A stretch of DNA of 64,000 bases from Acidobacteriota bacterium (GTDB lineage: Bacteria; Acidobacteriota; UBA6911), in contig OY761556.1 in NCBI GenBank assembly GCA_963664705.1, positions 3,104,001 through 3,168,000 on the forward strand. The letters run 5' to 3'. Positions 101-46,991 of this stretch are shown here, piece after piece. The stretch's first letter is position 1; each line of letters opens with the position of its first letter. Under the pieces are notes generated by a model. The model saw only the letters and a program-made list of their open reading frames with translations. It had not been told where the DNA came from and made no database searches. Both the position numbers and the translations under genes were made by a program.

Positions 101-215
101 GCGGGTTACGGGTTGAAGGTTTCAGATTGCAGGCAGCAGAATGCAGCAAGCCGCCGACACCGATCAACAAACCAATTCGTCATTCGTAATTCGTCATTCG
201 TAATTCGTCATTCGT
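101..215. repeat. Heptamer tandem-repeat element downstream of recG
   Basis: Degenerate nCRGGTT-type units at 101-144; six units alternating AATTCGT/CATTCGT at 174-215, ending exactly at the recG stop. Confidence 0.9.
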
Positions 216-2369
216 CTATCCTGTCATTGCCAAACCAAAATGGTCCTTCCACATTTGCCGGATAAGCTGGGCCACGCGGACTGTTTCTTCATCCGGATTT
301 CCGCGCAGCGCTTCAATGAAACGGCCCGCCTCATCACGAGCGATCTCCAGGGCGCGTCGATCCCGGATAAGATTAGCGTATTTGAAGGCCGGAATCCCGG
401 ATTGTCGTGTGCCGATGATTTCGCCCGGCCCGCGCAATTCCAGATCGACCTCTGCGATGCGAAACCCGTCGTTGGTCTCGCACATGATTTCGAGACGTCG
501 GCGCGCTTCAGGGCTGGTTCGCACATTGCCGACAAGGATACAGGTGGACTGGGCCGGTCCGCGCCCCACCCTGCCGCGAAGCTGATGGAGTTGGGAAAGG
601 CCAAAGCGCTCGGCATGTTCAATAACCATGAGGGTGGCATTCGCCACATCGACTCCGACCTCAATCACAGTCGTGGAAACCAGAACCTGGAGCTTTCCGG
701 CGGCAAACGCGGCCATGGTCTCTTCTTTCTCTATACTCTTCATGCGACCGTGCAGCAGGCCGATACGCAGATTGGGAAATACCTTTCCGGCCAGGTACTC
801 CGCCATTTCCGTGGCTGCCCGCAGATCTGATTTCTCCGATTCCTCCACGAGAGGATACACCACATAAACCTGGTGGCCGTCAGAAACAGCTTTTCGTATC
901 GCTTCAAAGGCTTTGGCTCGGTCACTATCCTCATACCACAGCGTTTCAATCGGTTTGCGTCCAGGGGGCATCTGATTGATGGTCGATACATCGAGGTCGC
1001 CATACATCGTCAAAGCCAGGGATCGTGGAATCGGGGTCGCCGTCATGACCAGGACGTCCGGGTGTTGACCTTTTTCCCTCAGGATATTCCGCTGAACCAC
1101 GCCAAAGCGATGCTGTTCATCGATAACCACCAACGCCAGATTCTTGAACTGTACATCTTCCTGGACGAGAGCATGGGTGCCGATGGCAATCTGCGTCACC
1201 CCTTTCCCTATCCGCTCCTGCACCTGCCGCTTATCCTTTGCGGAAAGGCTGCCTTTCAGAAGGTCAATGCGGTACCCAACGGGTTCCAGGAGGCGTCTGA
1301 AATAAAAGTAGTGCTGTTCCGCCAGGATTTCGGTTGGAGCCATTATCGCGACCTGGTACCCGTTTTCCACGGCAATGACGGCTGCCTGCGCCGCAACAAT
1401 AGTCTTTCCGGATCCGACGTCCCCCTGAAGCAACCGGCTCATCGGATGAGGAGAACAGATATCCTCCGCAATATCCCTGAGGGCTTTTTTTTGCGCCTCG
1501 GTCGGATGGAAAGGAAGAACCTTCTTGATGGCAACGCGAATGCTCTCGTCCAATCGAAACTGCCTATCCTTCACATGGCGCACACGGTTTTGCCGAACCA
1601 TTGCGATGCCGACCTGCAGCTGGAAAAGCTCTTCAAAAATGAGTCGCTTGTGCGCCGGGGAAATGCCCTGGTTATAAAGATCCAGTTCCTTGCGCCGCTC
1701 GAGCGCAGTCGTCCCGCGGAATCCGGGAAAATGTAGCTGCTGTATCGCCCTGAGTCTGGAGAACAGGCGCAGCTTCCGGCTGAGCTGCGCTGGAATTGCG
1801 TCCGGGATGTCCGAAGGCAAATGCGCCAGGACCGAATAGATAATCTGACGCAGCGTGCGTGTCCGCAGGTCCACGATCCGTCGATAAATGGGCACCACCC
1901 GTCCGGAATGAATCGAAACGGCGGCGTTCTCATCTTCGAGGATTTCGCACTCAGGATTCATGAATACAAGAGCGCCATGAGCATAGGAGTCCTTTTTGAC
2001 CTGACCGTAGATGACAAGCCGTAGGCCGACTTTATAGACCATCCGGAGATATGGCTGATTAAAGAACTTGACTCGCACGCTTCCGCGCCCGTCGCGGACC
2101 AGCATTTCGTATACCGAGAAGCCACGGCGGCGCGAATCGAAACCACCAACGCTACATATTTCCCCGCAAATCAGTCCCCACTCTCCTTCCCGAAGCGACT
2201 CGATGGACTGAAACCGGCTGCGGTCTTCGTACCGGAACGGCGCATATCCCAGGAGATCTCCAATCGTGCGAATGCCGTGGGCAGCCAACATTTCCGACCG
2301 ACGCGGTCCGATGCCTTTCAGGAATTGCACGGCCGTATCCATTCGCAGAACAGGGGCTGTTGTGGTCAT
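216..2369 (-). CDS. recG: ATP-dependent DNA helicase RecG
   Basis: Wedge domain, LQGDVGSGKT Walker A, DEQH, MTATPIPR, QLRGRVGR and LRGPGE motifs. Confidence 0.97.
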   Translation of the reverse strand: MTTTAPVLRMDTAVQFLKGIGPRRSEMLAAHGIRTIGDLLGYAPFRYEDRSRFQSIESLREGEWGLICGEICSVGGFDSRRRGFSVYEMLVRDGRGSVRVKFFNQPYLRMVYKVGLRLVIYGQVKKDSYAHGALVFMNPECEILEDENAAVSIHSGRVVPIYRRIVDLRTRTLRQIIYSVLAHLPSDIPDAIPAQLSRKLRLFSRLRAIQQLHFPGFRGTTALERRKELDLYNQGISPAHKRLIFEELFQLQVGIAMVRQNRVRHVKDRQFRLDESIRVAIKKVLPFHPTEAQKKALRDIAEDICSPHPMSRLLQGDVGSGKTIVAAQAAVIAVENGYQVAIMAPTEILAEQHYFYFRRLLEPVGYRIDLLKGSLSAKDKRQVQERIGKGVTQIAIGTHALVQEDVQFKNLALVVIDEQHRFGVVQRNILREKGQHPDVLVMTATPIPRSLALTMYGDLDVSTINQMPPGRKPIETLWYEDSDRAKAFEAIRKAVSDGHQVYVVYPLVEESEKSDLRAATEMAEYLAGKVFPNLRIGLLHGRMKSIEKEETMAAFAAGKLQVLVSTTVIEVGVDVANATLMVIEHAERFGLSQLHQLRGRVGRGPAQSTCILVGNVRTSPEARRRLEIMCETNDGFRIAEVDLELRGPGEIIGTRQSGIPAFKYANLIRDRRALEIARDEAGRFIEALRGNPDEETVRVAQLIRQMWKDHFGLAMTG

Positions 2370-2382
2370 GATTTGATGGCTA

Positions 2383-2438
2383 CCGGTTGCAAGTTGCAGG
2401 TTACAGGTTACAGGGTGAGGAGTTCAAGCTGCAAGTTG
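2383..2438. repeat. Heptamer tract (CAGGTTA/CAAGTTG) upstream of recG
   Basis: CCGGTTG CAAGTTG CAGGTTA CAGGTTA CAGGGTG ... CAAGCTG CAAGTTG. Confidence 0.8.
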
Positions 2439-6145: not shown

Positions 6146-6177
6146 TTCGTTTCTCCTTTAAAATTCCATCGATTCTC

Positions 6178-6309
6178 AATTACGAGTTTCGAATGACGTA
6201 AGTTGAATTGAGATGATTTCTTTGCTCAATTCACTATTTGCCTGAATCCCTGCTTCCATCCAGGTCTGATGGTTCATTCGCAAATCGTAATTCGTAATTC
6301 CTAATTTCG
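6178..6309. repeat. Inverted heptamer element (AATTACG/CGTAATT) in the rpsK-rpsD spacer
   Basis: AATTACG AGTTTCG AATGACG ... CATTCGC AAATCGT AATTCGT AATTCCT; internal hairpin TGAATTGAG/CTCAATTCA. Confidence 0.8.
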
Positions 6310-6310
6310 C

Positions 6311-6724
6311 TTACACTCTGCGCCGCTTGGGCGGCCGGCAACCATTGTGCGGGATAGGAGTGATGTCACGGATGGCCTTCACTTCCAGTCCTGAGCTCTG
6401 CAAGGCACGGATTGCGGATTCTCGTCCCGCTCCGGGTCCTTTGAGCTCGACATTGATCGTGCGCATTCCGTATTCCTTCACGGCGTTGGCAGCAATCGTT
6501 GCCGCCTGTTGCGCTGCAAAAGGAGTCCCTTTGCGCGATCCCTTGAAGCCTACCGCGCCGGCACTGGACGTAGCCAGCAGGTTACCGTCGAGATCTGTAA
6601 TGCTGATAATCGTGTTGTTGAAAGTTGCGAGAACATGCGCAACACCAGCCGGTATGCTGAGTTTCTCCCGCTTCTTTCCAGTTTTCCGTTTTGCGGTCTT
6701 CTTTGCTTGTGCTTTTTCTGCCAT
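6311..6724 (-). CDS. rpsK: 30S ribosomal protein S11
   Basis: [34 protein letters not shown]. Confidence 0.99.
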
Positions 6725-6742
6725 GAATCACTCCAGCAAGGT

Positions 6743-7105
6743 CTACTTTTTGCCGACAATCCTTCGCGGCCCTTTGCGCGTCCGGGCGTTTGTATGCGTC
6801 CTCTGCCCTCGAACAGGAAGTCCGCGTCGATGACGCAGACCACGATAGGAACCGATCTCCATGAGTCTCTTGATATCCATCGAGATTGCCTTGCGCAGAT
6901 CGCCTTCGACCATCCCGTCTCTTTGGATAATATTGCGGATGCGCACCGCTTCTTCTTCGGTCAGGTCCTTCACCTTGGTATTGATACTAATTCCGGCCTC
7001 TTCTAGTATCTTGGCAGCCCGGCTTCTGCCGATACCGTAGATGTATGTGAGACCAACCTGGATTCGCTTTCCCAGTGGCAGATCCACTCCTGCGATTCTA
7101 GCCAA
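6743..7105 (-). CDS. rpsM: 30S ribosomal protein S13
   Basis: [27 protein letters not shown]. Confidence 0.99.
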
Positions 7106-7119
7106 TTCTTACCTCCCTT

Positions 7120-7233
7120 TTATCCCTGGCGCTGCTTGTGTTTGGGATTGGAGCACCGAACCTGGATGACCCCTTTGCGGCGCACGACTTTGCACTTGGT
7201 GCAGATCTTTTTTACGGACGCTCGTACTTTCAT
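7120..7233 (-). CDS. rpmJ: 50S ribosomal protein L36 (zinc-ribbon type; not in ORF track)
   Basis: Manual translation [37 protein letters not shown], between infA and rpsM. Confidence 0.98.
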
Positions 7234-7240
7234 AGTATCC

Positions 7241-7459
7241 CTACTTATACCTATACACGATTCGCCCCCGTGTTAAATCATAGGGGGATAGTTCAACCAG
7301 GATCTTGTCGCCAGGCAGGATCCGGATAAAATTCTTGCGCATTTTGCCCGAAACGTGCGCAAGCACCATGTGTTTATTCTCTAGTTCCACTCGGAACATA
7401 GCATTCGGCAGCGTCTCTACCACCGTTCCCACTACTTCGATTGCATCCTCTTTGGGCAT
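7241..7459 (-). CDS. infA: Translation initiation factor IF-1
   Basis: [33 protein letters not shown]; start placed at MPKED (72 aa). Confidence 0.97.
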
Positions 7460-7470
7460 ATGCATATTCA

Positions 7471-7531
7471 CGATTGACGATTTACGATTGATGATCCACT
7501 TCCGTCAATCATCAATCGTAAATTGTCAATC
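7471..7531. repeat. Inverted heptamer hairpin (GATTKAC family) in the adk-infA spacer
   Basis: 7472-7495 is complementary to 7508-7531 at 23/24 positions; contains the adk stop. Confidence 0.92.
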
Positions 7532-8185
7532 TTTTCCGACAACCGTCATAATAAAATCGAAGATTTCGTCAACTGCCCGTTCTCCATTAACTTCAACATA
7601 GAGTCCCTGGTCTTTGTAATACTGGATCAGGGGTGCCGTTTTCTGCTCATACACCTGGAGCCGTTCTGCAACTACCTCGGGCGCGTCGTCTTTCCGCTGT
7701 ACGAGAGCTGCCCGGCACTCATCACAGGCACCTTCCGCTTTTCCCGGATCCAGAATCGCGTTGAACATTTTGCCGCACTTTGCGCAGGTCCACCGCGAGG
7801 ACAGCCTTTTGATCAACTCGTTATTCCCGACCTTGACTCCGAGCGTCAGGATCTTCGTCTTGTCCTTCTCCAGTACCGACCGGAGAAATTCCGCCTGGGG
7901 AATTGTCCGCGGATATCCGTCAAGGATCACTCCGTTATCGCAGTCCGCGCGTCCAATCCGCTCGGCTACGATCGCATCCACCAGTTCATCCGGGACCAGC
8001 AGGCCCGAATCCATGAAAGCCTTGGCCTTTTGCCCCAGCTCGGTTTTGTTCCTCAATGCTTCGCGAAGTATGTCCCCGGTAGAAATGTGGGGAACTTTCA
8101 GTGCCTCGCTCATCATTCTCGCCTGCGTACCTTTTCCGGCACCGGGCGGACCAAGCATTATAATCGCTAACCGCTGATTCTTCAT
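7526..8185 (-). CDS. adk: Adenylate kinase (zinc lid)
   Basis: GPPGAGKGTQA, ISTGDILR, LDGYPRT, CxxC...CxxC lid. Confidence 0.98.
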   Translation of the reverse strand: MKNQRLAIIMLGPPGAGKGTQARMMSEALKVPHISTGDILREALRNKTELGQKAKAFMDSGLLVPDELVDAIVAERIGRADCDNGVILDGYPRTIPQAEFLRSVLEKDKTKILTLGVKVGNNELIKRLSSRWTCAKCGKMFNAILDPGKAEGACDECRAALVQRKDDAPEVVAERLQVYEQKTAPLIQYYKDQGLYVEVNGERAVDEIFDFIMTVVGKD

Positions 8186-8190
8186 CTTTT

Positions 8191-8277
8191 ATTTACGTTT
8201 TGCGATCAAAAAAAATAACGATCGAAGAAAAATGATGTGCTTTCAATCGTCAATCGTTAATCGTAAATCGTCAACCG
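8191..8277. repeat. Heptamer element (TMAATCG x5) in the secY-adk spacer
   Basis: TCAATCG TCAATCG TTAATCG TAAATCG TCAACCG at 8243-8277; decayed opposite arm ATTTACG TTTTGCG near 8191. Confidence 0.85.
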
Positions 8278-8278
8278 G

Positions 8279-9685
8279 TTAACTGCGCCGCCCGCGAATT
8301 CTTCCCTTTTTGAGGAATCCGTCATAATGACGCATGATCAGCTGCGATTCGATTTGTTGAATCGTATCCATCGCAACGCCGACCACAATCAGAAGAGAAG
8401 TACCGCCGAAGTAAAACGTTACGCCAAGCCCCGTCGTAATCCAGGCCAATCCGGCAGAGTTGAGAAAATCGTCAAGCTTAGGTCCAATAAACGGAATGGG
8501 CTGAACCTTAAACCCGGTGATCAGGAATTCCGGCAACAGGCAAACCAGCACGAGATAGATGGCGCCGGCAGCCGTAAGACGGCTCAGGATGCGATCGATA
8601 AACTCTGCCGTTCTCCGTCCAGGCCGAATTCCGGGAATGTACCCGCCGTATTTCCGGATATTATCCGCAACCTCCATGGGGTTGAAGATAATGCTGACAT
8701 AAAAGAAACAGAAAAAGATGATACCCGCGATATAGAGCAGGTTATAGAGCGGCATGCCCTGCGCAAGCTGCGATGAGAGGCTCGTCATCCACTTGACCTG
8801 TACCACAGCCGCCAGCGTACCAGGAATCGAGACGATGGAGGCGGCAAAGATTACAGGGATAACGCCGCCGGAATTGACCCGCAGCGGCAAGTGCGTCGCC
8901 TGTCCGCCATAGACGCGTCGTCCGACAACACGTTTCGCATACTGAACAGGAATCTTCCTTTGCCCGCGTTCCACAAAAACCACGGCCGCGACCACAACCA
9001 CCATGACGATGATAAGAATCGCGATGGTAAAGATAGACCATTCACGCGCGACGAACCGATTGTAAATCTGCGCAATAGCGTGTGGCAGGCCGACCACGAT
9101 ACCGGCAAAGATAATCAAGCTGATGCCGTTTCCGATTCCCCGTTCGGTGATCTGTTCACCGACCCACATGATAAAGGCAGTTCCGGTAGTCAGCGTGATC
9201 ATGACCATCAGCCGGAAACCCCATCCGGGATTCAGCACGACGGATCCGCCGCCGGAGCGCTCGAGAGCAACCGCAGTCATAAACCCCTGGAAGAGGGTCA
9301 GCGCTACCGTCATATAGCGCGTGTATTGAGTAATCTTCTTTCTACCCAGTTCGCCTTCTTTGGAAAGCTTTTCCAGGTAAGGTACGACGACGGTGGCGAG
9401 CTGCAGGATAATGGATGCGGTAATATACGGCATAATCCCCAAAGCGAAAATGCTGAAGCGCTTCAGGGCGCCGCCGGAGAAGATGTCGAGAAATCCGAAG
9501 ATGGTCCCCGCCTGTGTCTGGAACAGCTGTTCCAGAGCCGCACCATTGATTCCCGGGGTTGGGATGAAGGCACCGATGCGATATACAGCCAGCAGGCCGA
9601 GCATAAAAAGCACTCGCTTGCGCAAGTCCGGAATGCTGAATATATTTTGTATAGAACTGAAAAAAGGACTTCTTTCTTCCGGCAT
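8279..9685 (-). CDS. secY: Preprotein translocase subunit SecY
   Basis: SIFALGIMPYITASII, GIGNGISLIIF, GGYIPGIRPG, FGGTSLLIVVGV. Confidence 0.99.
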   Translation of the reverse strand: MPEERSPFFSSIQNIFSIPDLRKRVLFMLGLLAVYRIGAFIPTPGINGAALEQLFQTQAGTIFGFLDIFSGGALKRFSIFALGIMPYITASIILQLATVVVPYLEKLSKEGELGRKKITQYTRYMTVALTLFQGFMTAVALERSGGGSVVLNPGWGFRLMVMITLTTGTAFIMWVGEQITERGIGNGISLIIFAGIVVGLPHAIAQIYNRFVAREWSIFTIAILIIVMVVVVAAVVFVERGQRKIPVQYAKRVVGRRVYGGQATHLPLRVNSGGVIPVIFAASIVSIPGTLAAVVQVKWMTSLSSQLAQGMPLYNLLYIAGIIFFCFFYVSIIFNPMEVADNIRKYGGYIPGIRPGRRTAEFIDRILSRLTAAGAIYLVLVCLLPEFLITGFKVQPIPFIGPKLDDFLNSAGLAWITTGLGVTFYFGGTSLLIVVGVAMDTIQQIESQLIMRHYDGFLKKGRIRGRRS

Positions 9686-9771
9686 CGTCTTTTCACAACC
9701 TCAAAGACTGGGGTTGATGTTCTCAGAGGCCACTCGGCTTCGAGAAGGGTAAATATTCAAGTTTATTCTTT

Positions 9772-10218
9772 TTATGCAATTACCTCAATGGTGCCGCCCG
9801 CCTTCTTGATCTTCTCTTCCGCGCTCTTGCTGAATTTGTGCGCACGAACAGTAAGCGCGTGGGGCAGTTCTCCGACGCCAAGAATCTTGAGTCCATCCTG
9901 CAGCTTCTTGACGATTCCTTTGCTTTTCAGGATTTCCGGATCTACGACAGATCCAGCCTCGAATTCAGCCAGAGTCTCAAGATTGACCACGGCATATTCC
10001 TTGCGGAAAATATTATGAAATCCGCGCTTCGGCAATCGCCGGTACAGCGGCATCTGACCGCCTTCAAATCCGGGACGAATGCTGGCACCGGCACGGGACA
10101 TCTGTCCGTTGTAGCCTCGGGCCGCTGTCTTGCCGTGCCCGGAACCGATTCCGCGTCCGACACGTTTATTCTTGCGGTTTGCGCCGGGAGCCGGCTTCAG
10201 AGTATTTATGCTTAACAT
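9772..10218 (-). CDS. rplO: 50S ribosomal protein L15
   Basis: RVGRGIGSGHGKT, FEGGQMPLYRRLPKRGF. Confidence 0.99.
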   Translation of the reverse strand: MLSINTLKPAPGANRKNKRVGRGIGSGHGKTAARGYNGQMSRAGASIRPGFEGGQMPLYRRLPKRGFHNIFRKEYAVVNLETLAEFEAGSVVDPEILKSKGIVKKLQDGLKILGVGELPHALTVRAHKFSKSAEEKIKKAGGTIEVIA

Positions 10219-10237
10219 TGTCGTATGCCCTGTCTTT

Positions 10238-10315
10238 TAGTCGGCAGCAGATAGTGGGCAGTGGGCAGCAAGATACTCCATATACCGCCCATTGCCCACT
10301 GCAGACTGCCTACTG
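10238..10315. repeat. Inverted heptamer hairpin (CAGTGGG family) in the rpmD-rplO spacer
   Basis: TAGTCGG CAGCAGA TAGTGGG CAGTGGG CAG ... CCGCCCA TTGCCCA CTGCAGA CTGCCTA CTG; contains the rpmD stop. Confidence 0.88.
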
Positions 10316-10522
10316 TTCCAGAATTTTCACCAGGTGAGGAACCTGCGCGACCATGCCGCGAACAGCGGGAGTATCGACGCGATCGACGACCTGGTTGAGG
10401 CGCTTGAACCCCAGACTCTTGATAACCAGTTTGTGCTTTTCGGGCGAACCGATTGCACTGCGAACGTATTGGATTTTTAGTGTTGCGCCGGTTTCGGCTA
10501 CAGCTTTCTTTTTCGATGCCAT
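10310..10522 (-). CDS. rpmD: 50S ribosomal protein L30
   Basis: LKIQYVRSAIG..SLG..VRGMV..VPHLV; position after rpsE. Confidence 0.96.
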   Translation of the reverse strand: MASKKKAVAETGATLKIQYVRSAIGSPEKHKLVIKSLGFKRLNQVVDRVDTPAVRGMVAQVPHLVKILEQ

Positions 10523-10525
10523 CGC

Positions 10526-11020
10526 TTACAATTCCTCGACCTGTCGGCCCCGCAGTTTGGCAACTTCGACCGGTTCTTTCAGCCGTTTTAGTCCGTCGAA
10601 AGTGGCTTTGACCACATTATGGGGATTGGTGCTTCCAAGAGATTTCGTGAGGATGTTGGAAATACCCGCAGACTGAACGACGGCACGCACCGGTCCGCCT
10701 GCAATCACACCCGTCCCTTCGGATGCGGGTTTCAAAATCACTCGCCCGGCCCCGTAGCGGCCCAGAATGATATGAGGGATCGTGCGACCCTTCAGCGGAA
10801 CCCGAATCAGGTTCTTGCGCGCCTGTTCGACTCCTTTGCGGATGGCTTGAGGAACTTCCTTTGCCTTCCCCATCCCATAGCCCACCAGACCATTTTGATC
10901 GCCAACAACCACGAGAGCGCTGAAGCTCAGGTTCTTCCCGCCCTTGACCACTTTGGTCACGCGATTGATGGAGACAACCTGATCCTTCAATTCCATCGCA
11001 TTCGGATCGATCTTATCCAA
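10526..11020 (-). CDS. rpsE: 30S ribosomal protein S5
   Basis: [26 protein letters not shown]. Confidence 0.99.
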
Positions 11021-11034
11021 GCTTCCTCCGTAAC

Positions 11035-11106
11035 TAGTGGACAGTGGGCAGTTGGCAGTGGGCAGTTTGTTGTTTACTGCCGACTGGCGACTGTCGACTG
11101 CCGACT
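11035..11106. repeat. Inverted heptamer hairpin (CAGTGGG/ACTGCCG) in the rplR-rpsE spacer
   Basis: TAGTGGA CAGTGGG CAGTTGG CAGTGGG CAGT ... ACTGCCG ACTGGCG ACTGTCG ACTGCCG ACT. Confidence 0.92.
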
Positions 11107-11107
11107 C

Positions 11108-11476
11108 CTAAAATTTTAAACCTGATTCCCTGGCCGCTTCGGCTACCGCCTTGATCCGGCCGTGATATAAATAACCGCCGCGGTCGAACACAACCGCCTC
11201 GATCCCTTTGGCTTTGGCACGCTCAGCAATCGTCTTCCCGACGAGCTTCGAAGCTTGTATATTGCCCCCCTGTTTCAGGTCGCCAAGAACAGCCTTCTCA
11301 ACGGTGGACGCTGCCACAAGAGTTTTCCCCTGTGAGTCGTCTATGATCTGGGCATAAATGTACTTCGAGCTTCTGTAGATGCAAAGCCGTGGGCGATTGA
11401 CATTTCCGGAGATCTTCTGCCGGATGCGCTTGTGGATTCTGCGGCGTTCGCTGGAACGGTCAATTGGAGTAATCAT
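11108..11476 (-). CDS. rplR: 50S ribosomal protein L18
   Basis: [22 protein letters not shown]. Confidence 0.99.
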
Positions 11477-12036
11477 TAAGCACCCTTCTTCCCAACTTTG
11501 AGGCGGATAACTTCATTCTTGTATCGAAGTCCCTTACCCTTGTATGCATCCGGTTTTCTCAAGGAACGGATATCGGCAGCATACTGCCCGACGAGCTGCT
11601 TGTCCGATCCCGAAATAGTTATAGTCGCCACGTAATTCTGTATGCTCTTGCTTTGCTTTTCCGCCTTCACGCTGATTCCGGGCGGAATTGGAAACTCGAT
11701 GGGGTGGGAGTACCCCAGGGACAACGTCATATATTTTGGCTTGACGTCTACTTTGTATCCGATTCCAACTAAATCCAGCTCCTTGGTAAATCCATCGGTT
11801 ACGCCGCGGACGCAATTTGCGGCCAGTGCCCGGGCCAAGCCGTGGTATGCCGGATAGGGTTTCTCATCGGAGTCCCTGAAAGCCGTCAGAGTATCTCCAT
11901 TCAATTCAAAGCGAATACCAGCGGGAATGGGACTTGTCAGCTTTGCATTTTTCCCTTCGACTTCCAATTGGCCGTCGTGGATGCTCACCTTAACTCCGCC
12001 TGGCACCTTGATCGGTTTCTTTCCAATTCGCGACAT
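11476..12036 (-). CDS. rplF: 50S ribosomal protein L6
   Basis: [23 protein letters not shown]. Confidence 0.99.
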
Positions 12037-12056
12037 AAAGCACCTTTATGATAAAT

Positions 12057-12131
12057 CGTTCCCCATTTCCGGTTGCCCGCTTTCCCGTTCTCAACCATGT
12101 TCCAGGAACGGTTAAAGGGAAACGTTAAACG
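12057..12131. repeat. Degenerate inverted heptamer element (CGTTTCC/GGAAACG) in the rpsH-rplF spacer
   Basis: CGTTCCC CATTTCC GGTTGCC CGCTTTC CCGTTC ... GGAACGG TTAAAGG GAAACGT TAAACG. Confidence 0.7.
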
Positions 12132-12132
12132 C

Positions 12133-12531
12133 TTAGCTGATGGTACAGAGTACCTCTCCGCCTAATCCTTTTTCCTGCGCCTGCTTGCCCGTAAATATCC
12201 CCTGAGATGTGGACACGATGCAGACTCCCAGGCCACCAAGTACGGACGGGATTTCCGATTTATTCGCATACACGCGGCAACCCGGCCGGCTTACTCGATC
12301 TATGGCGGAAATCACAGGCTTCTTCCCCGACGAATAGCGGAGCTGTACACGGATCATTCCCTGCTTGTCGTCTTGGATCAGGTGATAATTGGAAACATAA
12401 CCCTCTTCCTTCAGGATCCGGGTAATTTCCAGTTTCAGTTTTGACGAGGGGATATCAACAGTCTCGTGCCTCGCATTACTGGCATTTCGAATCCGCGTCA
12501 GAAGATCGGACACGGGATCGGTCATCGTCAT
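12133..12531 (-). CDS. rpsH: 30S ribosomal protein S8
   Basis: TDPVSDLLTRIRNA, SRPGCRVY, GLGGEV. Confidence 0.99.
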   Translation of the reverse strand: MTMTDPVSDLLTRIRNASNARHETVDIPSSKLKLEITRILKEEGYVSNYHLIQDDKQGMIRVQLRYSSGKKPVISAIDRVSRPGCRVYANKSEIPSVLGGLGVCIVSTSQGIFTGKQAQEKGLGGEVLCTIS

Positions 12532-12546
12532 AATAAACTCTCCACG

Positions 12547-12629
12547 TAATTACGAATTACCGTTTACGAATAACGAATAGTGCATAGCTTTTCCCTTCGT
12601 CATTCGTCACCTGCAATTCGTCATTCCAA
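12547..12629. repeat. Inverted heptamer element (GAATTAC/TTCGTCA) in the rpsN-rpsH spacer
   Basis: TAATTAC GAATTAC CGTTTAC GAATAAC GAATA ... TTCGTCA TTCGTCA CCTGCAA TTCGTCA TTCC. Confidence 0.88.
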
Positions 12630-12815
12630 TTACCAGCTTGACTTGGTAACGCCAGGGATCTCCCCGGAAAGCGCCAGTGTACGGAAACAGAGGCGACAGA
12701 GCTGGAATTTCCGGTAATATCCTCGAGAACGACCACATCGCAGGCACCGGTTGTGCGCGCGCACCGTGAACTTCGGTGTCTGCCTGGCTTTGGCCTTCAT
12801 GCAATTTCTTGCCAC
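12630..12815 (-). CDS. rpsN: 30S ribosomal protein S14, short zinc-binding type Z
   Basis: GTG start after a GGGAG SD gives 61 aa; RCLRCGR...[16 protein letters not shown]. Confidence 0.97.
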
Positions 12816-12873
12816 AATAACTCCCGTCAGCAGTTGTGCTTCGTCCAAAGGACGAAGGCTTTACCAATACTAC

Positions 12874-13428
12874 TTATTGTTGCTGCCCTTTTTTCGCAAA
12901 TGGCATTCCCATAGCTTTCAACAGTTCGAAAGCTTCGTCGTCTGTTTTCGCAGTGGTGACGATGGTAATGTTCATCCCGCGAGCTTTATCCGCCTTTGCA
13001 AAATCAATTTCGGGGAAAATCAGCTGATCACGCAGTCCCAGCGTATAGTTCCCGCGGCCGTCAAACGATCGCGGAGACACGCCGCGAAAATCGCGAACGC
13101 GCGGAAGAGCGATATTCATCAGCCTGTCAAGGAACTCGAACATCCGATCCCCGCGCAATGTTACGGTTACGCCGATCGGCATCCCCTGGCGCAGTTTGAA
13201 AGCAGCGATCGACTTTTTTGCCTTGGTGACCACAGGGTGCTGCCCTGTGATGGCTCCGAGTTCATCCGCCGCTACGTCGAGAATCTTGGCATTGGAAATG
13301 GCTTCACCCAGCCCCATATTTACATTAATCTTCACCAGCTTGGGCGTCGCCATGATATTTTTGTACCCGAACTGCTTTGTCAGGGCAGGTACGGCTTCCG
13401 TCTTGTATAACTCCCGAAGTCTACTCAT
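12874..13428 (-). CDS. rplE: 50S ribosomal protein L5
   Basis: [25 protein letters not shown]. Confidence 0.99.
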
Positions 13429-13457
13429 GTTCTGACCTTTCCAACCTCGTCATGCCC

Positions 13458-13784
13458 CTACGCATCCAAAAGCTCGTTGCAGTTCTTACACACTCGGACC
13501 TTGCGGCCGTCCGGCATGACGCTGAGTCCCGTCCGGGAATGCTTATTGCAGCGCTTGCAGACAACCATCAGATTGGAGATGTGCAATGGGGATTCCTTCG
13601 GCAGGATCCCTCCCTTGATGTTTTTCTGCGGGTTAGGCCGGGTGTGCTTTTGGATATGATTCAAGCCTTCGACCACTGCCCTGTTTTTGTCTTGGAAGAC
13701 CCTGAGCACTTTTCCAGTCTTGCCCCGGTCCTTCCCAGACAGCACGTAAACCATGTCGTTTTTCTTAATATGCACTCTGGGCAT
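13458..13784 (-). CDS. rplX: 50S ribosomal protein L24
   Basis: KOW motif IKKNDMVYVLSGKDRGKTGKV; ESPLHISN. Confidence 0.98.
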   Translation of the reverse strand: MPRVHIKKNDMVYVLSGKDRGKTGKVLRVFQDKNRAVVEGLNHIQKHTRPNPQKNIKGGILPKESPLHISNLMVVCKRCNKHSRTGLSVMPDGRKVRVCKNCNELLDA

Positions 13785-13810
13785 CGGATTCTATCCTCGC
13801 TCAACCGCTT

Positions 13811-14179
13811 CTAGAGCACTTCAGGCGCCAGCGAAACGATTTTCAAAAAGTCTCTGTCCCTCAGCTCGCGGCTGACCGGACCGAAAACGCGCGTACCAAT
13901 GGGCTCTTTCTGGTCATTGATAAGCACCGCGGCATTATCGTCGAAGCGAATGTAGGTGCCGTCTTTGCGCCTAAATTCCTTGCGTGTCCGAACGATGACG
14001 GCCTTTACCACCTGTCCCTTTTTGACCGTGCCGTCCGGCGAAGCTTCCTTCACATTCGCCGTAATGATATCCCCAAGGCTCGCAACGCGACCCACCTGGT
14101 TTCCCAATGCGTGAATGCAGGAGATCTTCCGAGCTCCTGAATTATCCGCAACATCTAAAATCGTCCTCATCTGTATCAT
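13811..14179 (-). CDS. rplN: 50S ribosomal protein L14
   Basis: [29 protein letters not shown]. Confidence 0.99.
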
Positions 14180-14193
14180 GATGACCCTCAGTC

Positions 14194-14278
14194 CGAATTA
14201 CGAATTACGAATGTCGAAGGACGAATATGCTCACTCGTCCTTCAGCATTCGTAATTCGTCATTCGTAATTCGTCATTC
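14194..14278. repeat. Inverted heptamer hairpin (CGAATKA family) in the rpsQ-rplN spacer
   Basis: 14194-14224 is complementary to 14235-14265 at 28/31 positions around a 10-nt loop; contains the rpsQ stop. Confidence 0.95.
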
Positions 14279-14548
14279 AACACTTGTGGCACTGGTCAGT
14301 ACCTTCTCAACTCGCCATCTTTTGCGCGCACTCAGCGGCCGCGTTTCGACAATGCGCACGCGATCTCCTACCTTGCAGGATCCATTTTCATCGTGCGCCA
14401 GAAACTTGGAGGTCTTCCGCTGGATCTTCTTGTAGAGGGGATGCTGCACCAGTCTGTCGACCGCGACGGTGACAGTTTTCTGCATAGCCGTGCTTGTGAC
14501 GGTGCCGATCTGGCTCTTGCGGATTCCTCTTCTTTCTTCAGTTCCCAT
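14273..14548 (-). CDS. rpsQ: 30S ribosomal protein S17
   Basis: MQKTVTV, HPLYKK, AHDE, ETRPLS. Confidence 0.99.
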   Translation of the reverse strand: MGTEERRGIRKSQIGTVTSTAMQKTVTVAVDRLVQHPLYKKIQRKTSKFLAHDENGSCKVGDRVRIVETRPLSARKRWRVEKVLTSATSVE

Positions 14549-14563
14549 GTCTTCCCTATCTTG

Positions 14564-14640
14564 GATTTACAATTTACGATTAACGATTGAAAACTCAAAG
14601 ACGTCCTTCAATCATCAATCGTAAATCGTCAATCGTAAAT
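14564..14640. repeat. Inverted heptamer hairpin (GATTKAC family) in the rpmC-rpsQ spacer
   Basis: GATTTAC AATTTAC GATTAAC GATTGAA ... TTCAATC ATCAATC GTAAATC GTCAATC GTAAAT. Confidence 0.92.
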
Positions 14641-14641
14641 G

Positions 14642-14836
14642 TTACTTGCCCTTCTCCATCTCTGTAAGAACAGTAGCAATTCGCGCGATGTCGCGACGGA
14701 TATCGCGCATCTTCGGGGCACTCTCGACCTGACCTGCGGCTGCCTGGAAACGGAGCCGGAGAAGCTGCTTTCGCAGCTCGGCTTCTTCCACGAGCAGGTC
14801 GTCCTTGGACATATCCCTCATTTTAGAAGCCTTCAT
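14642..14836 (-). CDS. rpmC: 50S ribosomal protein L29
   Basis: 64 aa, [16 protein letters not shown]. Confidence 0.97.
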
Positions 14837-15255
14837 TCCGCCCCCTTCCCGAATCTCTTAACAAACTTCGATTTGACCGAAAGCTTGTGGCCCGCAAGCC
14901 TCATCGCTTCCTGTGCCTGATCTTCCGGGATCCCTTCCATTTCATACAGGATCTTGCCCGGCCGGACAACGGCAACCCAACCTTCAGGCGCGCCCTTTCC
15001 TTTGCCCATACGGGTTTCAGCAGGCTTCTTGGTGATCGGCTTGTCAGGGAAAACACGGATCCAGATCTTTCCGCCCCTCTTGACAAAACGGGTGATCGCG
15101 ACACGTCCGGCCTCGATCTGCCGGTCCGTAACCCAGCCCACTTCCATGGCTTTCAGACCGTATTCCCCGAAGGTCACCTCGGAGCCACGCCACGCCTTAC
15201 CGCGACGTTTGCCCTTTTGTTGCTTACGATATTTGACTTTTTTCGGCATCAGCAT
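14833..15255 (-). CDS. rplP: 50S ribosomal protein L16
   Basis: [31 protein letters not shown]. Confidence 0.99.
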
Positions 15256-15275
15256 GATTCACGAACTCCTCAAGC

Positions 15276-15929
15276 CTACCGGGCTGTCTTTTCAGGTCTC
15301 TGCATTTCGAAAACTTCGCCCTTGTAGATCCACACCTTAACGCCAATGACCCCGTAGGTCGTATTTGCTTCCGCAAATCCGTAATCGATATCCGCACGGA
15401 TTGTGTGCAGCGGCAGCTGACCGCTCAGGTACCATTCTGTACGCGCGATTTCCGCGCCATTCAAACGGCCGGAGCAGCGCACTTTAATCCCCTTCGCTCC
15501 AAAACGAAGCGTACCGTCGACTGCACGCCGCATAGCACGCCGGAAAGCGATTCGCTTTTCCAACTGCTGCGCAATCCCTTCCGATACGAGTTGCGCATCG
15601 AGTTCAGGCTTGCTAACTTCCTGGATCTTCAGGTTGACATCTCGCCCTGTCAGAAGCTGCATGTCCTTCTTCAGCTTCTCGATCTCGGTCCCCTTCTTCC
15701 CTACGATAATGCCGGGCCGCGAAGTAAAGATAATGATAGTCAACTTGTTGGCCGCCCGCTCGACCTCAATACGGGATACACCCGCATGCGAAAACTTCTT
15801 CTTCAGCATCTTCTTAAGACGAAGATCTTCATGAAGCAGGGCGCCGTAGTCTTTCCGAGCAAACCAGCGGGAACGCCACGTGCGATTAACCCCAAGCCTG
15901 AAACCGTAAGGATGAACTTTCTGACCCAC
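15276..15929 (-). CDS. rpsC: 30S ribosomal protein S3
   Basis: [34 protein letters not shown]. Confidence 0.99.
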
Positions 15930-15940
15930 GGATTACCTCC

Positions 15941-16300
15941 CTACCCTTCTTCCTCGATGTCTTTACCTTTGATGGATATGACGACATGTTTGTAGCGGCG
16001 CTGCTGGCGATAGGCTCGACCCATCGGGGCGGGGCGAACTCTTCGGCGGTACTTGGTAGGACCGGAATCGACGATCGCACGATCTACGATAAACTGGTCG
16101 ACATCCGCAGCGGCGTTCTTCTCTTTCGCATTCGCAACCGCCGATAATAGCACCTTCTCTATCGACTTCGTGGCGCGCTTGTTGGTGAACCGGAGAATAG
16201 CCAGGGCCTCCTGCACATTCCTGCCGCGAATAAGATCAATGACGAGCCGGGCTTTCTGCGGCGACCCTCTCAAATATTTGCCTTTCGCTATAGCTTCCAT
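15941..16300 (-). CDS. rplV: 50S ribosomal protein L22
   Basis: SPQKARLVIDLIRG, SAVANA, PMGRA. Confidence 0.98.
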   Translation of the reverse strand: MEAIAKGKYLRGSPQKARLVIDLIRGRNVQEALAILRFTNKRATKSIEKVLLSAVANAKEKNAAADVDQFIVDRAIVDSGPTKYRRRVRPAPMGRAYRQQRRYKHVVISIKGKDIEEEG

Positions 16301-16309
16301 AACCCTCTC

Positions 16310-16386
16310 AATTTCGGATTTGGAATTTCAGATTGCAGATTGCAGAACTGCTCAATCCGCCGCTCGAAATCCGAAATCCGTAATCC
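16310..16386. repeat. Inverted heptamer element (GATTKCR/AAATCCG) in the rpsS-rplV spacer
   Basis: AATTTCG GATTTGG AATTTCA GATTGCA GATTGCA ... CAATCCG ... AAATCCG AAATCCG TAATCC. Confidence 0.85.
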
Positions 16387-16391
16387 TTTCC

Positions 16392-16697
16392 CTATGCCGG
16401 CGGTTTCACCGCGGTTGTCTTCTCGGCCGCCTTGGTGCTCGTGTGCCCTTTGAACATCCGGGTCGGGGCAAATTCACCAAGCTTATGGCTAACCATATTC
16501 TCAGAAATGTAAATGGGTATGAACTTCTTGCCGTTATGCACGGCAATCGTCAAACCGACCATATCTGGAGTAATCGTCGAACGCCGCGACCATGTTTTGA
16601 TCACCGTCCGGCTGCCTGCTCCAGCAGTGGAAGCGGCTCCCACCTTTTTCAGGAGATGGTCGTCAACAAAAGGTCCTTTTTTGACTGATCTGGTCAT
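16392..16697 (-). CDS. rpsS: 30S ribosomal protein S19
   Basis: [29 protein letters not shown]. Confidence 0.99.
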
Positions 16698-16705
16698 GCT
16701 GCTCC

Positions 16706-17533
16706 CTATTTACCGCGGCGCTTAATGATGAAGCGCTGAGTACGTTTATTATTCCGGGTCTTGTACCCCTTCGTGGGCAATCCCCATGGACTGACCGGAT
16801 GACGGCCACCGGAGGTTTTCCCCTCACCGCCGCCATGCGGATGATCGATCGGGTTCATGGCAACGCCGCGTACCGTCGGTCGTTTCCCCAGCCAACGAGT
16901 GCGACCCGCCTTGCCGATGGACACGTTTTCATGGTTCAGATTTCCAACCTGTCCTATCGTGGCATAGCAGTCCAGGATGACCATACGGGTTTCGCCCGAT
17001 GGCATCTTGATCTGGGCATACCCAGATTCCTTAGCCACCAACTGGGCAGCAGCACCCGCCGCTCTCGCCAATTGGCCGCCTTTTCCCTTTTTCATCTCGA
17101 TATTGTGAATCATCGTACCGAGAGGGATGTTTTTGAGAGGCAGCGCGTTCCCGAGAAGAATGTCCGCCGTATCACCGGCAACAACGGTCGCTCCGACGGC
17201 TAGACCATCGGGAGCCAGGATATAGCGCTTTTCTCCATCCGCATACGCAAGCAACGCAATGCGGGCGGATCGATTCGGATCATATTCGAGCGCTACAACC
17301 TTTGCTGGAATTTCGCGCTTGTCACGACGGAAATCAATGATGCGATACAGCTTTTTGTGCCCGCCGCCCCGGTGCCGCACGGTAAGACGCCCTTTATTGT
17401 TGCGTCCGGAAATCCTTTGTTTGGATTCCGTGAGGCGCTTGAGCGGACGATCCTTGGAGAGATCCTTGTTATCCAGAGTCGTCCGGAACCGGATCGCCGG
17501 TGACGTGGGATTATAGGTCTTGATAGAAGACAT
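16706..17533 (-). CDS. rplB: 50S ribosomal protein L2
   Basis: [29 protein letters not shown]. Confidence 0.99.
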
Positions 17534-17554
17534 GATTTCGCCCAGCTCCTGCTG

Positions 17555-17848
17555 TTATACTGCCTCGGAAAACTCGATCATCTTCTCACCCTCTTTGAGG
17601 GTGACGTAGGCCTTTTTCCAATCCGGCCGACGGCCGGTATACCGACCCTGACGTCGCTTCTTCCCATGGAAAATCGCCGTACGAACACTTTCAACCTTTA
17701 CTTTAAAGATCTTCTCGACGGCATCCTTAATTTCGATTTTGTTCGCATCCCGCAAAACTTTGAACGCAACAGTCCGGAGATTTTCCTTGACGTGTGTGCT
17801 CTTTTCCGTAATTACGGGAAGTTGTAAAACATATTCTCTATGGTTCAT
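17555..17848 (-). CDS. rplW: 50S ribosomal protein L23
   Basis: PVITEKS, ANKIEIK.AVE..F.VKV, WKKAYVTL. Confidence 0.98.
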   Translation of the reverse strand: MNHREYVLQLPVITEKSTHVKENLRTVAFKVLRDANKIEIKDAVEKIFKVKVESVRTAIFHGKKRRQGRYTGRRPDWKKAYVTLKEGEKMIEFSEAV

Positions 17849-18471
17849 CGGCTTAGGACCTCCTGCACCTGGAGAATCGCATCCTTGGAAAAAAGCAGCG
17901 TGTTGCTGTTGACCACATCAAAGATGTTAACGCCGGTGCCGGGAACCAGCTTTACCTTCGGCAGATTGCGCGAAGACAGCACCAGGTTGTTGTTCCGGCT
18001 GGAATCCACAATCAAGACTTTTCCAGTGAATCCCATCTTCACAAGCAATTTCTGAAACTCTTTGGTCTTGCTGCTTTCCGGAGTCAGGTTCTCGATTACA
18101 GCTACCGAGTTTTCACTGAGCTTTGCGGAAAGTGCCGAACGCATTGCGCTCTGCAGCTTTTTGCGCGGGAAGTTGTAGACGTAGCTCCGCGGCTGTGGCC
18201 CATGTACCGTTCCACCATGCCGCCACAGAGGGCTTCGAATGCTGCCAACCCGTGCCCGCCCGGTACCCTTCTGGCGCCAGAGCTTCTTCCCGCTTCCACT
18301 CACATCTCCTCGGACTTTGGTTGAGGCAGTTCCTGCCCGAAGGGAATCACTATAGTGTTTTACGGCTTCCCAGATGAGGGGCTGGTTAAAGTCCGCCTTG
18401 AATACGGCATCCGAAAGCTCCAGCTTTCCTACAACCTCATTGGCAAGGTTTTTTACCTCAATCTCCGCCAT
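17845..18471 (-). CDS. rplD: 50S ribosomal protein L4
   Basis: [25 protein letters not shown]. Confidence 0.99.
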
Positions 18472-18481
18472 ACCACCCTCA

Positions 18482-18542
18482 CAATTGACGATTTACGATT
18501 GACGATTGACGATTTTGTCTTTCGACCGTAGATCGCTAAATC
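18482..18542. repeat. Heptamer element (CGATTKA x5) in the rplC-rplD spacer
   Basis: CAATTGA CGATTTA CGATTGA CGATTGA CGATTTT with decayed opposite arm TCGACCG TAGATCG. Confidence 0.85.
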
Positions 18543-19172
18543 CTATGACTTTTTGATAATAACGTATCCGCCGTTGCGCCCGGGAACAGCACCCTTGACC
18601 ATTAGCAGGTTTTCCTGTTCCTGAATGCGTACCACACTGAGGTTCTGAACCGTTACCGCTTCATCGCCCATGTGCCCGGCAGCCCGCATCCCCGGCAAAA
18701 CACGGCTCGGGAAAGCAGAGGCTCCAATCGATCCGGGAGCTCTGTGGAACATGGAACCATGGCTTGCGGCGCCGCCACCGAAGTGGTGTCGTTTGATCAA
18801 TCCGGCAAACCCACGCCCTTTGCTGGTTCCAAGAATATCGACTTTATCCTTCGCCTGGAAAACCTGCGTTAACAGGATCTGCTCGCCGACATTGGGCATT
18901 TCAGCCCCATCCTGAAAGCGGAACTCACGCATAATCCGGCAGGGCGGAACACCGGCTTTCTTGAAGTGGCCAGTTCTCGGCTTGTTAACCCTGGAAGGAC
19001 GAATAAACTCTACGAGGCCCAGCTGGACCGATTCGTAACCATCCGTCTCCTTGGTCTTCTTCTGAACGACAACACAGGGTCCGGCTTTGATCACGGTAAC
19101 CGGAGTAACGATTCCGTTCTCGTCAAAAACCTGAGTCATCCCTACCTTAATACCAATCAATCCATCAACCAT
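18543..19172 (-). CDS. rplC: 50S ribosomal protein L3
   Basis: [30 protein letters not shown]. Confidence 0.99.
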
Positions 19173-19174
19173 AT

Positions 19175-19330
19175 CAGTTCCCGGTTCCCAGTTCCCAGTT
19201 CCCCGTTCCCAACTCCATCCGAACAGAGGAAACTCGGAGCTCGTTTTATTTCGCTTGCTGTTTCCCGGTCCCAGTCATCAACTTTCCAGTTCGCATTCAA
19301 TCATGAACTGGAAACTCTGTACTGGGAGCT
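19175..19330. repeat. Heptamer element (CAGTTCC/GAACTGG) in the rpsJ-rplC spacer
   Basis: CAGTTCC CGGTTCC CAGTTCC CAGTTCC CCGTTCC CAACTCC ... TTTCCAGTTC/GAACTGGAAA hairpin, GTACTGG GAGCT. Confidence 0.88.
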
Positions 19331-19333
19331 CCT

Positions 19334-25380: not shown

Positions 25381-25522
25381 GGAAAAAGTCTCCGCAAAAT
25401 CCCCAGGCCCAAAGATTTCAAGTATATGACAAATTTTCCCTGAGCCCCGAAACTTTGTCGCGGCTGCAAATATTTTCGCTCAACTCCGCCGCGCTTCATT
25501 AGATAAGCGAGGAGGAACAAAA

Positions 25523-28249: not shown

Positions 28250-28421
28250 CGATTGACGATTTACGAGTGACGATTGAACAACCAATCCGATCTCGAAAAT
28301 CCTGGTTTAGTGGAGAAGTAAGAGCTTCGCACACACTCTTGGGTTTCCGTGGCAACACAACCTACTTCGATCCGGAATCGTGCGTGCTGTTCAATCGTCA
28401 ATCGTAAATCGTCAATCAATT
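28243..28421. repeat. Heptamer element with 30-bp inverted arms around a 107-nt spacer (MITE-like)
   Basis: 28251-28280 is complementary to 28388-28417 at 29/30 positions; lies between convergent stop codons. Confidence 0.93.
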
Positions 28422-31133: not shown

Positions 31134-31183
31134 GTCCTCAAACTTTTGAGTCTATGGGGCACACGATCTGAAGTCAAGTATAG

Positions 31184-31345
31184 TAGTCAGTAGTCAGGAG
31201 TCAGGAGTCAGGAGTCAGGGGATTTTCGTTTGACGCTTTTTAGTTTTGACTAAAACGCCATTCCAAGCATCAATCTATATCAGGTCAAGACACCTTATCC
31301 TGTATCCTCATATCCTGTATCCTCATTCCTGAATCGTGTATCATG
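31184..31345. repeat. Two heptamer tracts in the divergent larC-argS region
   Basis: (T/G)AGTCAG x5 at 31184-31218; TATCCTG/TATCCTC units at 31296-31345, including the 15-mer TATCCTGTATCCTCA twice. Confidence 0.9.
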
Positions 31346-37965: not shown

Positions 37966-38083
37966 TAATTACGAATTGAGAATGGATACAAAAGCCCGCC
38001 TCTGTTGGCGGCAGTGCGCCAATTCAAACATGTCGCACTGCCCCGTCTTAGGGTTTCAATCCGTCATTCGTAATTCGTCATTT
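37966..38083. repeat. Inverted heptamer element (GAATKAC family) between S46 peptidase and rhomboid
   Basis: TAATTAC GAATTGA GAATGGA ... AATCCGT CATTCGT AATTCGT CATTT; internal hairpin GGCAGTGCG/CGCACTGCC; contains the S46 stop. Confidence 0.8.
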
Positions 38084-46956: not shown

Positions 46957-46991
46957 TGCTGCATGATATCTGCTCAAGGACAATGCATATC

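Follow-up and report, generated by a model that had tools for sequence, protein, structure and literature searches.

Heptamer hairpins at ribosomal operon junctions share their units with the arms of four-helix-bundle genes in an Acidobacteriota genus

The window analysed here, 64,000 nucleotides of contig OY761556.1 (positions 3,104,001 to 3,168,000), belongs to a single-contig genome of 6.89 Mb (G000, the genome under study) whose closest named relatives are uncultured Acidobacteriota. The S10-spc-alpha ribosomal superoperon lies on its minus strand, and twelve gene junctions of this operon hold fold-back elements built of tandem 7-nt units. We found that the unit tracks the clade of small four-helix-bundle proteins (TIGR02436/PF05635), both beside their genes and genome-wide. 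The feature is thus very probably protein-linked, in line with the original prediction, made from the sequence of the window, that a dedicated process generates the arms. As to their nature, we see roughly an even chance that the hairpins are gene-less copies of the arms which flank four-helix-bundle genes, likely written or renewed in place under the direction of the protein and not left over from gene deletion. In our best reading, the arms belong to a system of the type found in rRNA intervening sequences (IVS), as if IVS had colonised mRNA junctions.

Period-7 arrays in the superoperon and across the genome

All twelve spacers named in the original prediction were found at their positions on the minus strand:

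19173..19333, minus strand: rpsJ/rplC spacer, arms of clade-C type CAGTTCC/CGGTTCC, the downstream one (19175-19216) intact and the upstream one decayed; a second hairpin on the inside
18472..18542, minus strand: rplC/rplD spacer, arms of clade-E type GATTKAC, the downstream one at 18482-18516 and the upstream one decayed
16301..16391, minus strand: rpsS/rplV spacer, clade-D type GATTTCG/GATTGCA arms 16325-16346 and 16365-16386
14549..14641, minus strand: rpmC/rpsQ spacer, GATTKAC arms 14564-14588 and 14608-14640
14180..14279, minus strand: rpsQ/rplN spacer, GAATKAC arms 14194-14226 and 14245-14279; rpsQ stop codon supplied by the first unit
12532..12629, minus strand: rpsN/rpsH spacer, GAATKAC arms, partial decay
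12037..12132, minus strand: rpsH/rplF spacer, decayed clade-C type CGTTTCC hairpin; clade-C gene not found in G000
11021..11107, minus strand: rplR/rpsE spacer, clade-B type CAGTCGG / CAGTGGG arms 11035-11069 and 11076-11107
10219..10315, minus strand: rpmD/rplO spacer, CAGTGGG arms; rpmD stop codon overlapped by the outer unit
8186..8278, minus strand: secY/adk spacer, GATTKAC arms, the upstream one at 8243-8277 and the downstream one decayed
7460..7532, minus strand: adk/infA spacer, GATTKAC arms 7466-7495 and 7505-7532; adk stop codon supplied by the first unit
6146..6310, minus strand: rpsK/rpsD spacer, GAATKAC arms; loop of ~70 nt

Seven was the best period in 11 of the 12 spacers, with a score reached by none of 500 shuffles, and the decayed rpsH/rplF spacer had a best period of 8 (period-7 p=0.046). 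By the same shuffle test, the period-7 signal of two control spacers was not significant. Nine of the twelve folded with z<-2 against 40 dinucleotide shuffles. The predicted period-7 fold-back repeats are therefore clear at eleven junctions and decayed at one. The constancy of size and period claimed along with them did not hold: the spacers range from 66 to 165 nt, and 6- and 8-mer families exist across the genus. Similarly, the suggested likeness to the short tandemly repeated repetitive (STRR) units of cyanobacteria found no counterpart, with 0 arrays of two or more copies in G000 for the four unit spellings quoted. The window is matched without differences by Logan contigs that may derive from the source sample, with interruptions only at two arrays.

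Genome-wide, period 7 is far commoner than its neighbours: 296 strong tracts, versus 13, 38 and 59 for periods 6, 8 and 9. According to gene calling made within this analysis, 273 of these tracts are intergenic, in 204 loci, while intergenic DNA makes up 14.8% of the genome. The tracts are also paired as inverted arms beyond permutation expectation, since 118/296 have an inverted partner within 1 kb (32.8 ± 6.2 after permuting units, maximum 50 in 200 permutations); another 120 lack any neighbouring tract at that threshold. A family-seeded scan recovered 280 non-coding arrays, among which the D family is the largest. Same-family inverted neighbours point inward in 33 cases and outward in one. 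The median distance between a stop codon and the start of the arm that follows it is 9 nt (n=162), and overlap with the preceding stop codon was seen for 33 of 112 arms. Each family has a degenerate position of its own (T57/G40 in GAATKAC, C65/T30 in GATTYCA). Arms of different families oppose each other with normal polarity, and single tracts may switch family, as at window position 31181.

Outside one island, arrays occupy 97/3581 co-directional, 48/807 convergent and 17/806 divergent junctions. Superoperon junctions are enriched, with 8/28 occupied in a strict scan versus 89/3553 of the other co-directional junctions; occupancy follows codon usage in a weak trend, from 1.4% to 3.7%.

Four-helix-bundle genes and the unit carried by each protein clade

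G000 encodes five PF05635 genes, all above the curated cut-off in a profile search, and 8/8 proteins scored above the TIGR02436 cut-off. Each of the five is enclosed by inverted arms, with a different unit per gene, which bears out the link between such arms and TIGR02436-type genes that had been proposed; one armed gene ends ~0.6 kb before the window. Across the comparison set of 30 congeneric genomes (G000 included), the search gave 80 matches in 23 genomes, from which 70 gene calls were recovered. Excluding 8 armless fragments left a tree of 62 proteins, 53 full-length and 9 partial: 60 of them have an arm, and where two arms are present these are inverted in 39 of 45 genes. Judging from codon comparisons, the genes are under purifying selection (dN < dS in 11/11 pairs, dS being saturated in 4), and S47, N51 and E77 are invariant. 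The predicted model (pLDDT 92.7) has four helices and matches 2GSC at an rmsd of 0.8 Å. This predicted fold is similar to pentameric Xcc0516 (TM 0.84-0.86) and to Avd (TM ~0.75), with a weak match to the Avd profile (E 5e-7 to 7e-6; 26-30 bits versus a cut-off of 80). Just inside the first arm, many of these genes are preceded by the motif TT(G/C)GCTCAA-N15-TTAGAT, possibly a genus promoter, which also stands before an ordinary gene at window 25460-25500.

Units were assigned to clades as follows: GAWTKAC to E, GATTYCA/RATTCGA to D, CGTTTCC/CAGTTCC to C, CAGTNGN/TAGTGGT to B and CAGRAGW to A, besides clades with 6- and 8-mer units. The nearest neighbour from another genome carries a unit with at most one mismatch in 29/60 cases (permutation mean 4.2, maximum 13). 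Taken alone, this match beside the genes is co-descent only, kin sharing labels. The arrays of the whole genome go further. Abundant GATTYCA arrays (86-241 matches) occur in G000, G005, G010, G017 and G037, each of which has a clade-D gene; in G032 the clade-D gene is flanked by RATTCGA arms, and the genome contains 0 GATTYCA and 101 RATTCGA matches, the highest RATTCGA count of the set; the remaining 24 genomes, without clade D, contain 0-4 GATTYCA matches. Since G000 differs in this respect from G002 and G014, its own sisters, the abundance is not one inherited event. Clade-E genes (3 broken or partial) are found in 8 genomes. All eight belong to the 12 genomes in which GAWTKAC has 63 or more matches, and none to the 18 in which it has at most 18. 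No clade-C gene was found in G000, which has only 3 C-type matches and whose two C-type junctions are decayed. Clade A fits the rule loosely. A Fisher test for clade C was set aside owing to a further clade-C fragment in G007 and a post hoc threshold.

Several observations weigh against protein-directed arrays. The clade-D gene of G000 is frameshifted and D arrays are still its largest family. Arrays occur without a detected cognate gene for RATTCGA in G002, G012 and G014 (36-55 matches), for GAWTKAC in G002, G007, G018 and G037 (127-268) and for CAGRAGW in G034 and G004. C-type matches number 25 or more in 16 genomes, seven of which show no clade-C gene, G002 has 8-mer arrays with no clade-C gene found, and G039 has a clade-A gene and no arrays. 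In most of these cases the assembly is fragmented; G014 (99%, 10 contigs) is a real counter-example to a strict unit-clade rule unless gene loss was recent. Related genomes, moreover, do not count as independent cases, and those without the gene fall together on the tree.

We consider it very improbable that the arrays are STRR-like simple repeats independent of any protein, born by 7-nt polymerase slippage, with palindromes made by template switching. A heptamer excess and a slippage hypothesis are indeed published (PMC4692102, citing its ref. 33, in the part of the text available), and inward stem extension and a slight mirroring between arms agree with such an origin. Yet the same units recur across loci and genomes, in step with protein clades and with degenerate positions that remain specific to each family, and the polarity is 33:1. 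The clade-unit match largely refutes this explanation.

One four-helix-bundle gene lies in a compositionally atypical accessory island (G000:C1:1300000-1500000, L101-L107) with very long, irregular arrays of CCAACGT/CCCAACGT, up to ~450 nt and with C-run stutter. Of this family X, 71/77 arrays lie within 150 kb of the island gene. Local spread from the gene was nonetheless rejected: clustering is seen only for family X, inside the atypical island, so it is no evidence of cis action.

Turnover at orthologous junctions and the origin of the hairpins

The operon was compared over 20 congeneric loci from 19 genomes and 11 loci from the class. G005 contributes two different ribosomal operon copies (L004, L005) from one bin, which is probably chimeric. 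The twelve sites are long in most congeners; occupancy is therefore old while the unit family changes. Thus rplC/rplD carries E1, E2 or 8-mer units among congeners, and rpmC/rpsQ carries E1, D or 8-mer units, with E2, partly decayed, in G000. Eight junctions are fresh in both of the sister genomes G002 and G014, and at 4 of these the two carry different families. Arrays were gained at usually short spacers (rpmJ/rpsM and rpsM/rpsK in G014, rpsD/rpoA in G014 and G002), and rplN/rplX is long with D arms in 4/20 loci. The overlapping or near-overlapping junctions rplD/rplW, rplP/rpmC, rpsE/rpmD, rplB/rpsS and rplV/rpsC are short in the congeneric loci, barring two frameshift mis-calls in G017. 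Relatives hence vary in presence and absence through gains and losses, as had been predicted for a mobile element, and also swap units at orthologous junctions. Fresh arrays fill 63/206 junction slots in genomes with the gene family versus 1/84 in the five genomes without it, which cluster on the tree. In other families of the class (L021 of G020, L022, L023), this operon is likewise filled, with units particular to them: by eye, AAACCTG occupies most junctions in G020 and an AATCC-type arm comes first, a polarity opposite to that of G000.

A unit switch in one lineage was observed for the 8-mer CGTTHACG, whose arrays occur in only 2/30 genomes, the sisters G002 (127 overlapping three-copy matches) and G014 (185). 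In G014 the clade-C gene itself is flanked by 8-mer arms with outer 7-mer units. In 112 8-mer arms, drawn from 48 loci chosen among the first-listed matches and from two operons, the ancestral 7-mer lies outside in 12 and inside in 1 (p=0.003). Among 49 complete 8-mer elements, the loop is missing in 16 and measures 7-107 nt in the others, whose loops are unrelated. G000 has an orthologous junction for 41/52 elements; among the matches listed, these junctions hold no 8-mer and one D hairpin, and some keep an older 9-mer-type hairpin adjoining the position of the new arm. At rpsD/rpoA, the ~80-nt loop of an 8-mer element in L009 (G014) and in L196 (G002, ~726-812) resembles the last 20 codons of rpmC, with mostly third-position differences. 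For the G014 loop, rpmC is the top match among 5333 proteins (score 56 vs 47; blastp E 0.056, by itself not significant); for the G002 loop it lies outside the top six, and the DNA score is 37-41 vs a shuffle maximum of 32. The source of this loop might be the end of a gene, captured from a relative.

Fold strength follows the units: median z is -5.6 at fresh junctions (n=52, 50 of them with z<-2) and -1.0 at unit-less junctions (n=94). Since unit-less junctions fold weakly, the host does not retain the hairpin after unit loss, and the proposed role as a host module for RNA processing or stoichiometry becomes doubtful. The sense strand folds better in 32/52 fresh and 71/94 unit-less junctions, a comparison confounded by composition. 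We likewise judge it unlikely that a host regulatory network explains the arrays, that is, slippage-born repeats kept as binding sites through which the protein controls mRNA processing, stability or translation of core operons. Purifying selection on the genes, enrichment in the superoperon with its weak codon-usage trend and the presence of an RNase III gene in G000 speak for such a network, and translational regulation was suggested for the TAACTGA repeats of ribosomal protein operons (MacGregor 2015, PMC4679880, in the part available). The family at a junction, however, differs between sisters, in several lineages both the arrays and the hairpin strength have disappeared, and occupancy is highest at convergent junctions (48/807). 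Moreover, slippage alone does not account for ~100 loci adopting one new 8-mer in one lineage.

The original prediction had also offered the hairpins as the empty form of a gene-bearing cassette. In that explanation, a cassette enters gene ends or older hairpins and an internal deletion then removes the gene. Filled and empty forms do have units and polarity in common, as well as, by eye, an A-tract after the first arm, and nesting accounts for the outer-old units; the order of old units outside and new ones inside would equally fit whole-element insertion into older loops, a point that counts against writing in place. In addition, a 9-mer-armed repeat at genome 1489148-1489883 holds a short open reading frame (ORF) remnant inside its arm pair, which we take to be GxxExxY. 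Nevertheless, a six-frame profile search of G000, with its ~200 loci, revealed no four-helix-bundle remnant beyond the five genes (3 weak matches, E 0.38-4.7, the best one not beside an array), and 30 operon loci contained neither a gene remnant nor a gene-filled site. Zero loops in 16/49 8-mer elements, and the frequency of single arms and mixed-family pairs, also argue against it. Gene deletion is thus weakly supported or not supported, and we hold this explanation to be improbable. A strict pattern for the cassette leader gave 37 matches, none near an arm, and also missed the filled copies of G000 itself. The idea that loops are captured host genes was rejected: in sets of 39 and 43 loops, protein matches did not exceed those of shuffles, the rpmC-like rpsD/rpoA loop excepted.

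A further possibility is that elements resembling miniature transposable elements with inverted repeats (MITE) or repetitive extragenic palindromes (REP) are transposed as entire units by a separate transposase. The occurrence of short inverted-repeat elements where genes end, lineage-specific bursts and the single Y1_Tnp transposase gene of G000 would agree with this. However, that gene sits in an accessory island and loops differ between copies, the few matches in DNA searches of loops all being other repeats. No target duplication was seen by eye at the G014 gains and rplN/rplX, where relatives are too diverged for a strict test. A non-autonomous mobile cassette of the MITE kind, another suggestion of the original prediction, is accordingly not supported, and we give this alternative a very small chance.

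A perfect fold-back origin was rejected as well: 63% of variant positions are mirrored between arms (219/345 vs 198-203 in shuffles). Some fold-back copying may underlie this slight mirroring, which is a point against independent writing of each arm. The complementarity of outer flanks of the arms was not significant. A reverse-transcriptase partner was rejected at the level of presence and absence, RVT_1 being missing in G003, G012 and G018, which have arrays, and present in G009, G013 and G016, which do not; that no reverse transcriptase tracks the arrays also counts against writing in place.

These patterns fit loop-side extension or replacement of separate arms, with units set by the resident protein, and gene deletion, whole-element transposition and simple fold-back fit less well. 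For writing in place, we propose that the protein, a predicted pentamer like Xcc0516 and Avd, binds its own unit as RNA or single-stranded DNA, and that the one degenerate position per unit may be a base flipped out into the protein ring, by analogy with Avd. New units would be added at the loop-side end of each arm, each arm separately, with arrays already present serving as the template while a nick or break close to the tip of the hairpin is being repaired. The writing enzyme would probably be a host polymerase, because reverse transcriptases do not track the arrays. Inserts in essential operons might be tolerated because they span the interval from the stop codon to the vicinity of the following ribosome-binding site and would fold out of the mRNA, and the hairpins could be trimmed by RNase III, cleavage being supposed by analogy with rRNA IVS.

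More tentatively, and with less confidence than in the gene-less copies themselves, we suggest that four-helix-bundle IVS proteins might be specificity subunits of an unrecognised repeat-writing system. A host polymerase would add the 6-9-nt unit of the clade to opened DNA ends (gene junctions, hairpin tips), telomerase-like and inside-out, and the extended ends would rejoin head to head. If true, heptamer excess, rRNA intervening sequences and gene capture between arms would be one transposase-free process.

Further elements and comparison with known systems

Beyond the superoperon, about eight similar elements had been predicted in the window. Further loci do exist, and their count is nearer six:

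173..216, unstranded: single GAATKAC-family arm, 6 units, outside the operon
2381..2414, unstranded: period-7 arm, GTTRCAG type; possible decayed partner 2608-2634
28243..28418, unstranded: GATTKAC arm pair between convergent genes; unique loop of 113 nt
31181..31342, unstranded: mixed arm, CAGTAGT units switching to CAGGAGT, opposed by a TATCCTG arm
37967..38083, unstranded: GAATKAC arm pair, left arm decayed
58141..58165, unstranded: single AATTCCA/GATTTCA arm, clade-D type

Elsewhere in G000, four tandem ~260-nt units each contain a complete GAATKAC hairpin (G000:C1:3262349-3263227), and a B-family hairpin directly follows the 5S rRNA of one rRNA operon (G000:C1:4583456-4583523), none following the other. 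Two inverted B-family arms entirely enclose an ordinary host gene, presumably dtd-like, at G000:C1:4145015-4145583. An unrelated palindromic repeat of ~200 nt (window 46990-47230; L102:15424-15640) has many copies in G014, and one copy lies inside the loop of a D-family arm pair (genome 4109902). Three PDDEXK_3 genes (G000:C1:4472310, 2163578 and 3800606) are flanked by 9-mer arrays of CCACGAATT and ACCGCGAAG types; gene-less 9-mer hairpins occur too, including window 36840-36880, an apparent parallel system.

Heptamer repeats are a recognised, unexplained excess in bacterial genomes. The genus links this excess to the S23/IVS family, for which, to our knowledge, structures have been solved but no function assigned. 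It also offers a natural unit switch in one lineage and orthologous junctions with replaced units. Protein-directed writing, if true, would give these repeats a cause. If the proteins read or write units, they would be small, naturally re-specified nucleic-acid-binding rings, and would provide for transposase-free DNA insertion into essential operons. Named pairs of protein and unit can be tested: D with GATTYCA, E with GAWTKAC, C with CGTTTCC or the new 8-mer, B with CAGTNGN and A with CAGRAGW. A search largely of open-access papers found none joining four-helix-bundle proteins to intergenic repeat arms, and the available part of a recent non-coding survey (10.64898/2026.10.21.760802) mentions neither heptamers nor a helix bundle.

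On the features tested, the elements are not members of the IVS, MITE or STRR families. With MITEs, REPs and bacterial interspersed mosaic elements (BIME) they share short intergenic inverted repeats, often right after stop codons, and a lineage-wise spread. They differ in that the arms are tandem arrays, likely renewed separately, that loops are unique and that no target duplication was seen by eye. A REP/BIME has a conserved palindrome with a GTAG/CGTC foot and a flanked gene for a REP-associated tyrosine transposase (RAYT); in G000 the arms are tandem 7-mers and one Y1_Tnp gene is present. Avd has the same fold (TM ~0.75) and acts as a pentamer reading an RNA stem-loop, which it binds via flipped-out bases between protomers (bioRxiv 10.1101/2023.10.23.563531, in the part available). 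The proteins of G000 differ from those of a diversity-generating retroelement in lying, at 26-30 bits, far below the Avd cut-off of 80, and no reverse transcriptase follows the arrays.

The closest likeness in protein is the 23S IVS of Coxiella burnetii, which, in the accessible text of PMC4990558, encodes S23p of the same protein family and has a 28-bp stem with tandem GACAGAT heptamers at its 5′ end, cut by RNase III. Both systems thus join this protein family to tandem heptamers and a terminal stem; the IVS folds out of its host RNA, as the elements of G000 would. In G000, on the other hand, the elements lie at mRNA junctions of protein genes, in ~200 mostly gene-less copies with several clade-specific units. 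Its two 23S genes carry no ORF-sized IVS, as both are only 3005 nt against a 2925-position model.

The closest likeness in repeats comes from the TAACTGA heptamers of Ca. Maribeggiatoa, which also occur inside ribosomal protein operons (PMC4679880), and from the inverted GGGAATC pairs of Xanthomonas (PMC4692102). As far as the available parts of these papers go, the repeats are likewise of period 7, mostly in 2-6 copies and intergenic, with inverted pairs in the latter and ribosomal protein operon sites in the former. No four-helix-bundle partner is named there ('four helix' has 0 matches in PMC4692102 and 'S23' 0 in PMC4679880), and one unit is described per genome, whereas in G000 at least six families coexist and follow protein clades. 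The genome-wide match of unit to clade, the 8-mer sweep, the inside-out order and the remnant-free loops are what is new in this case.

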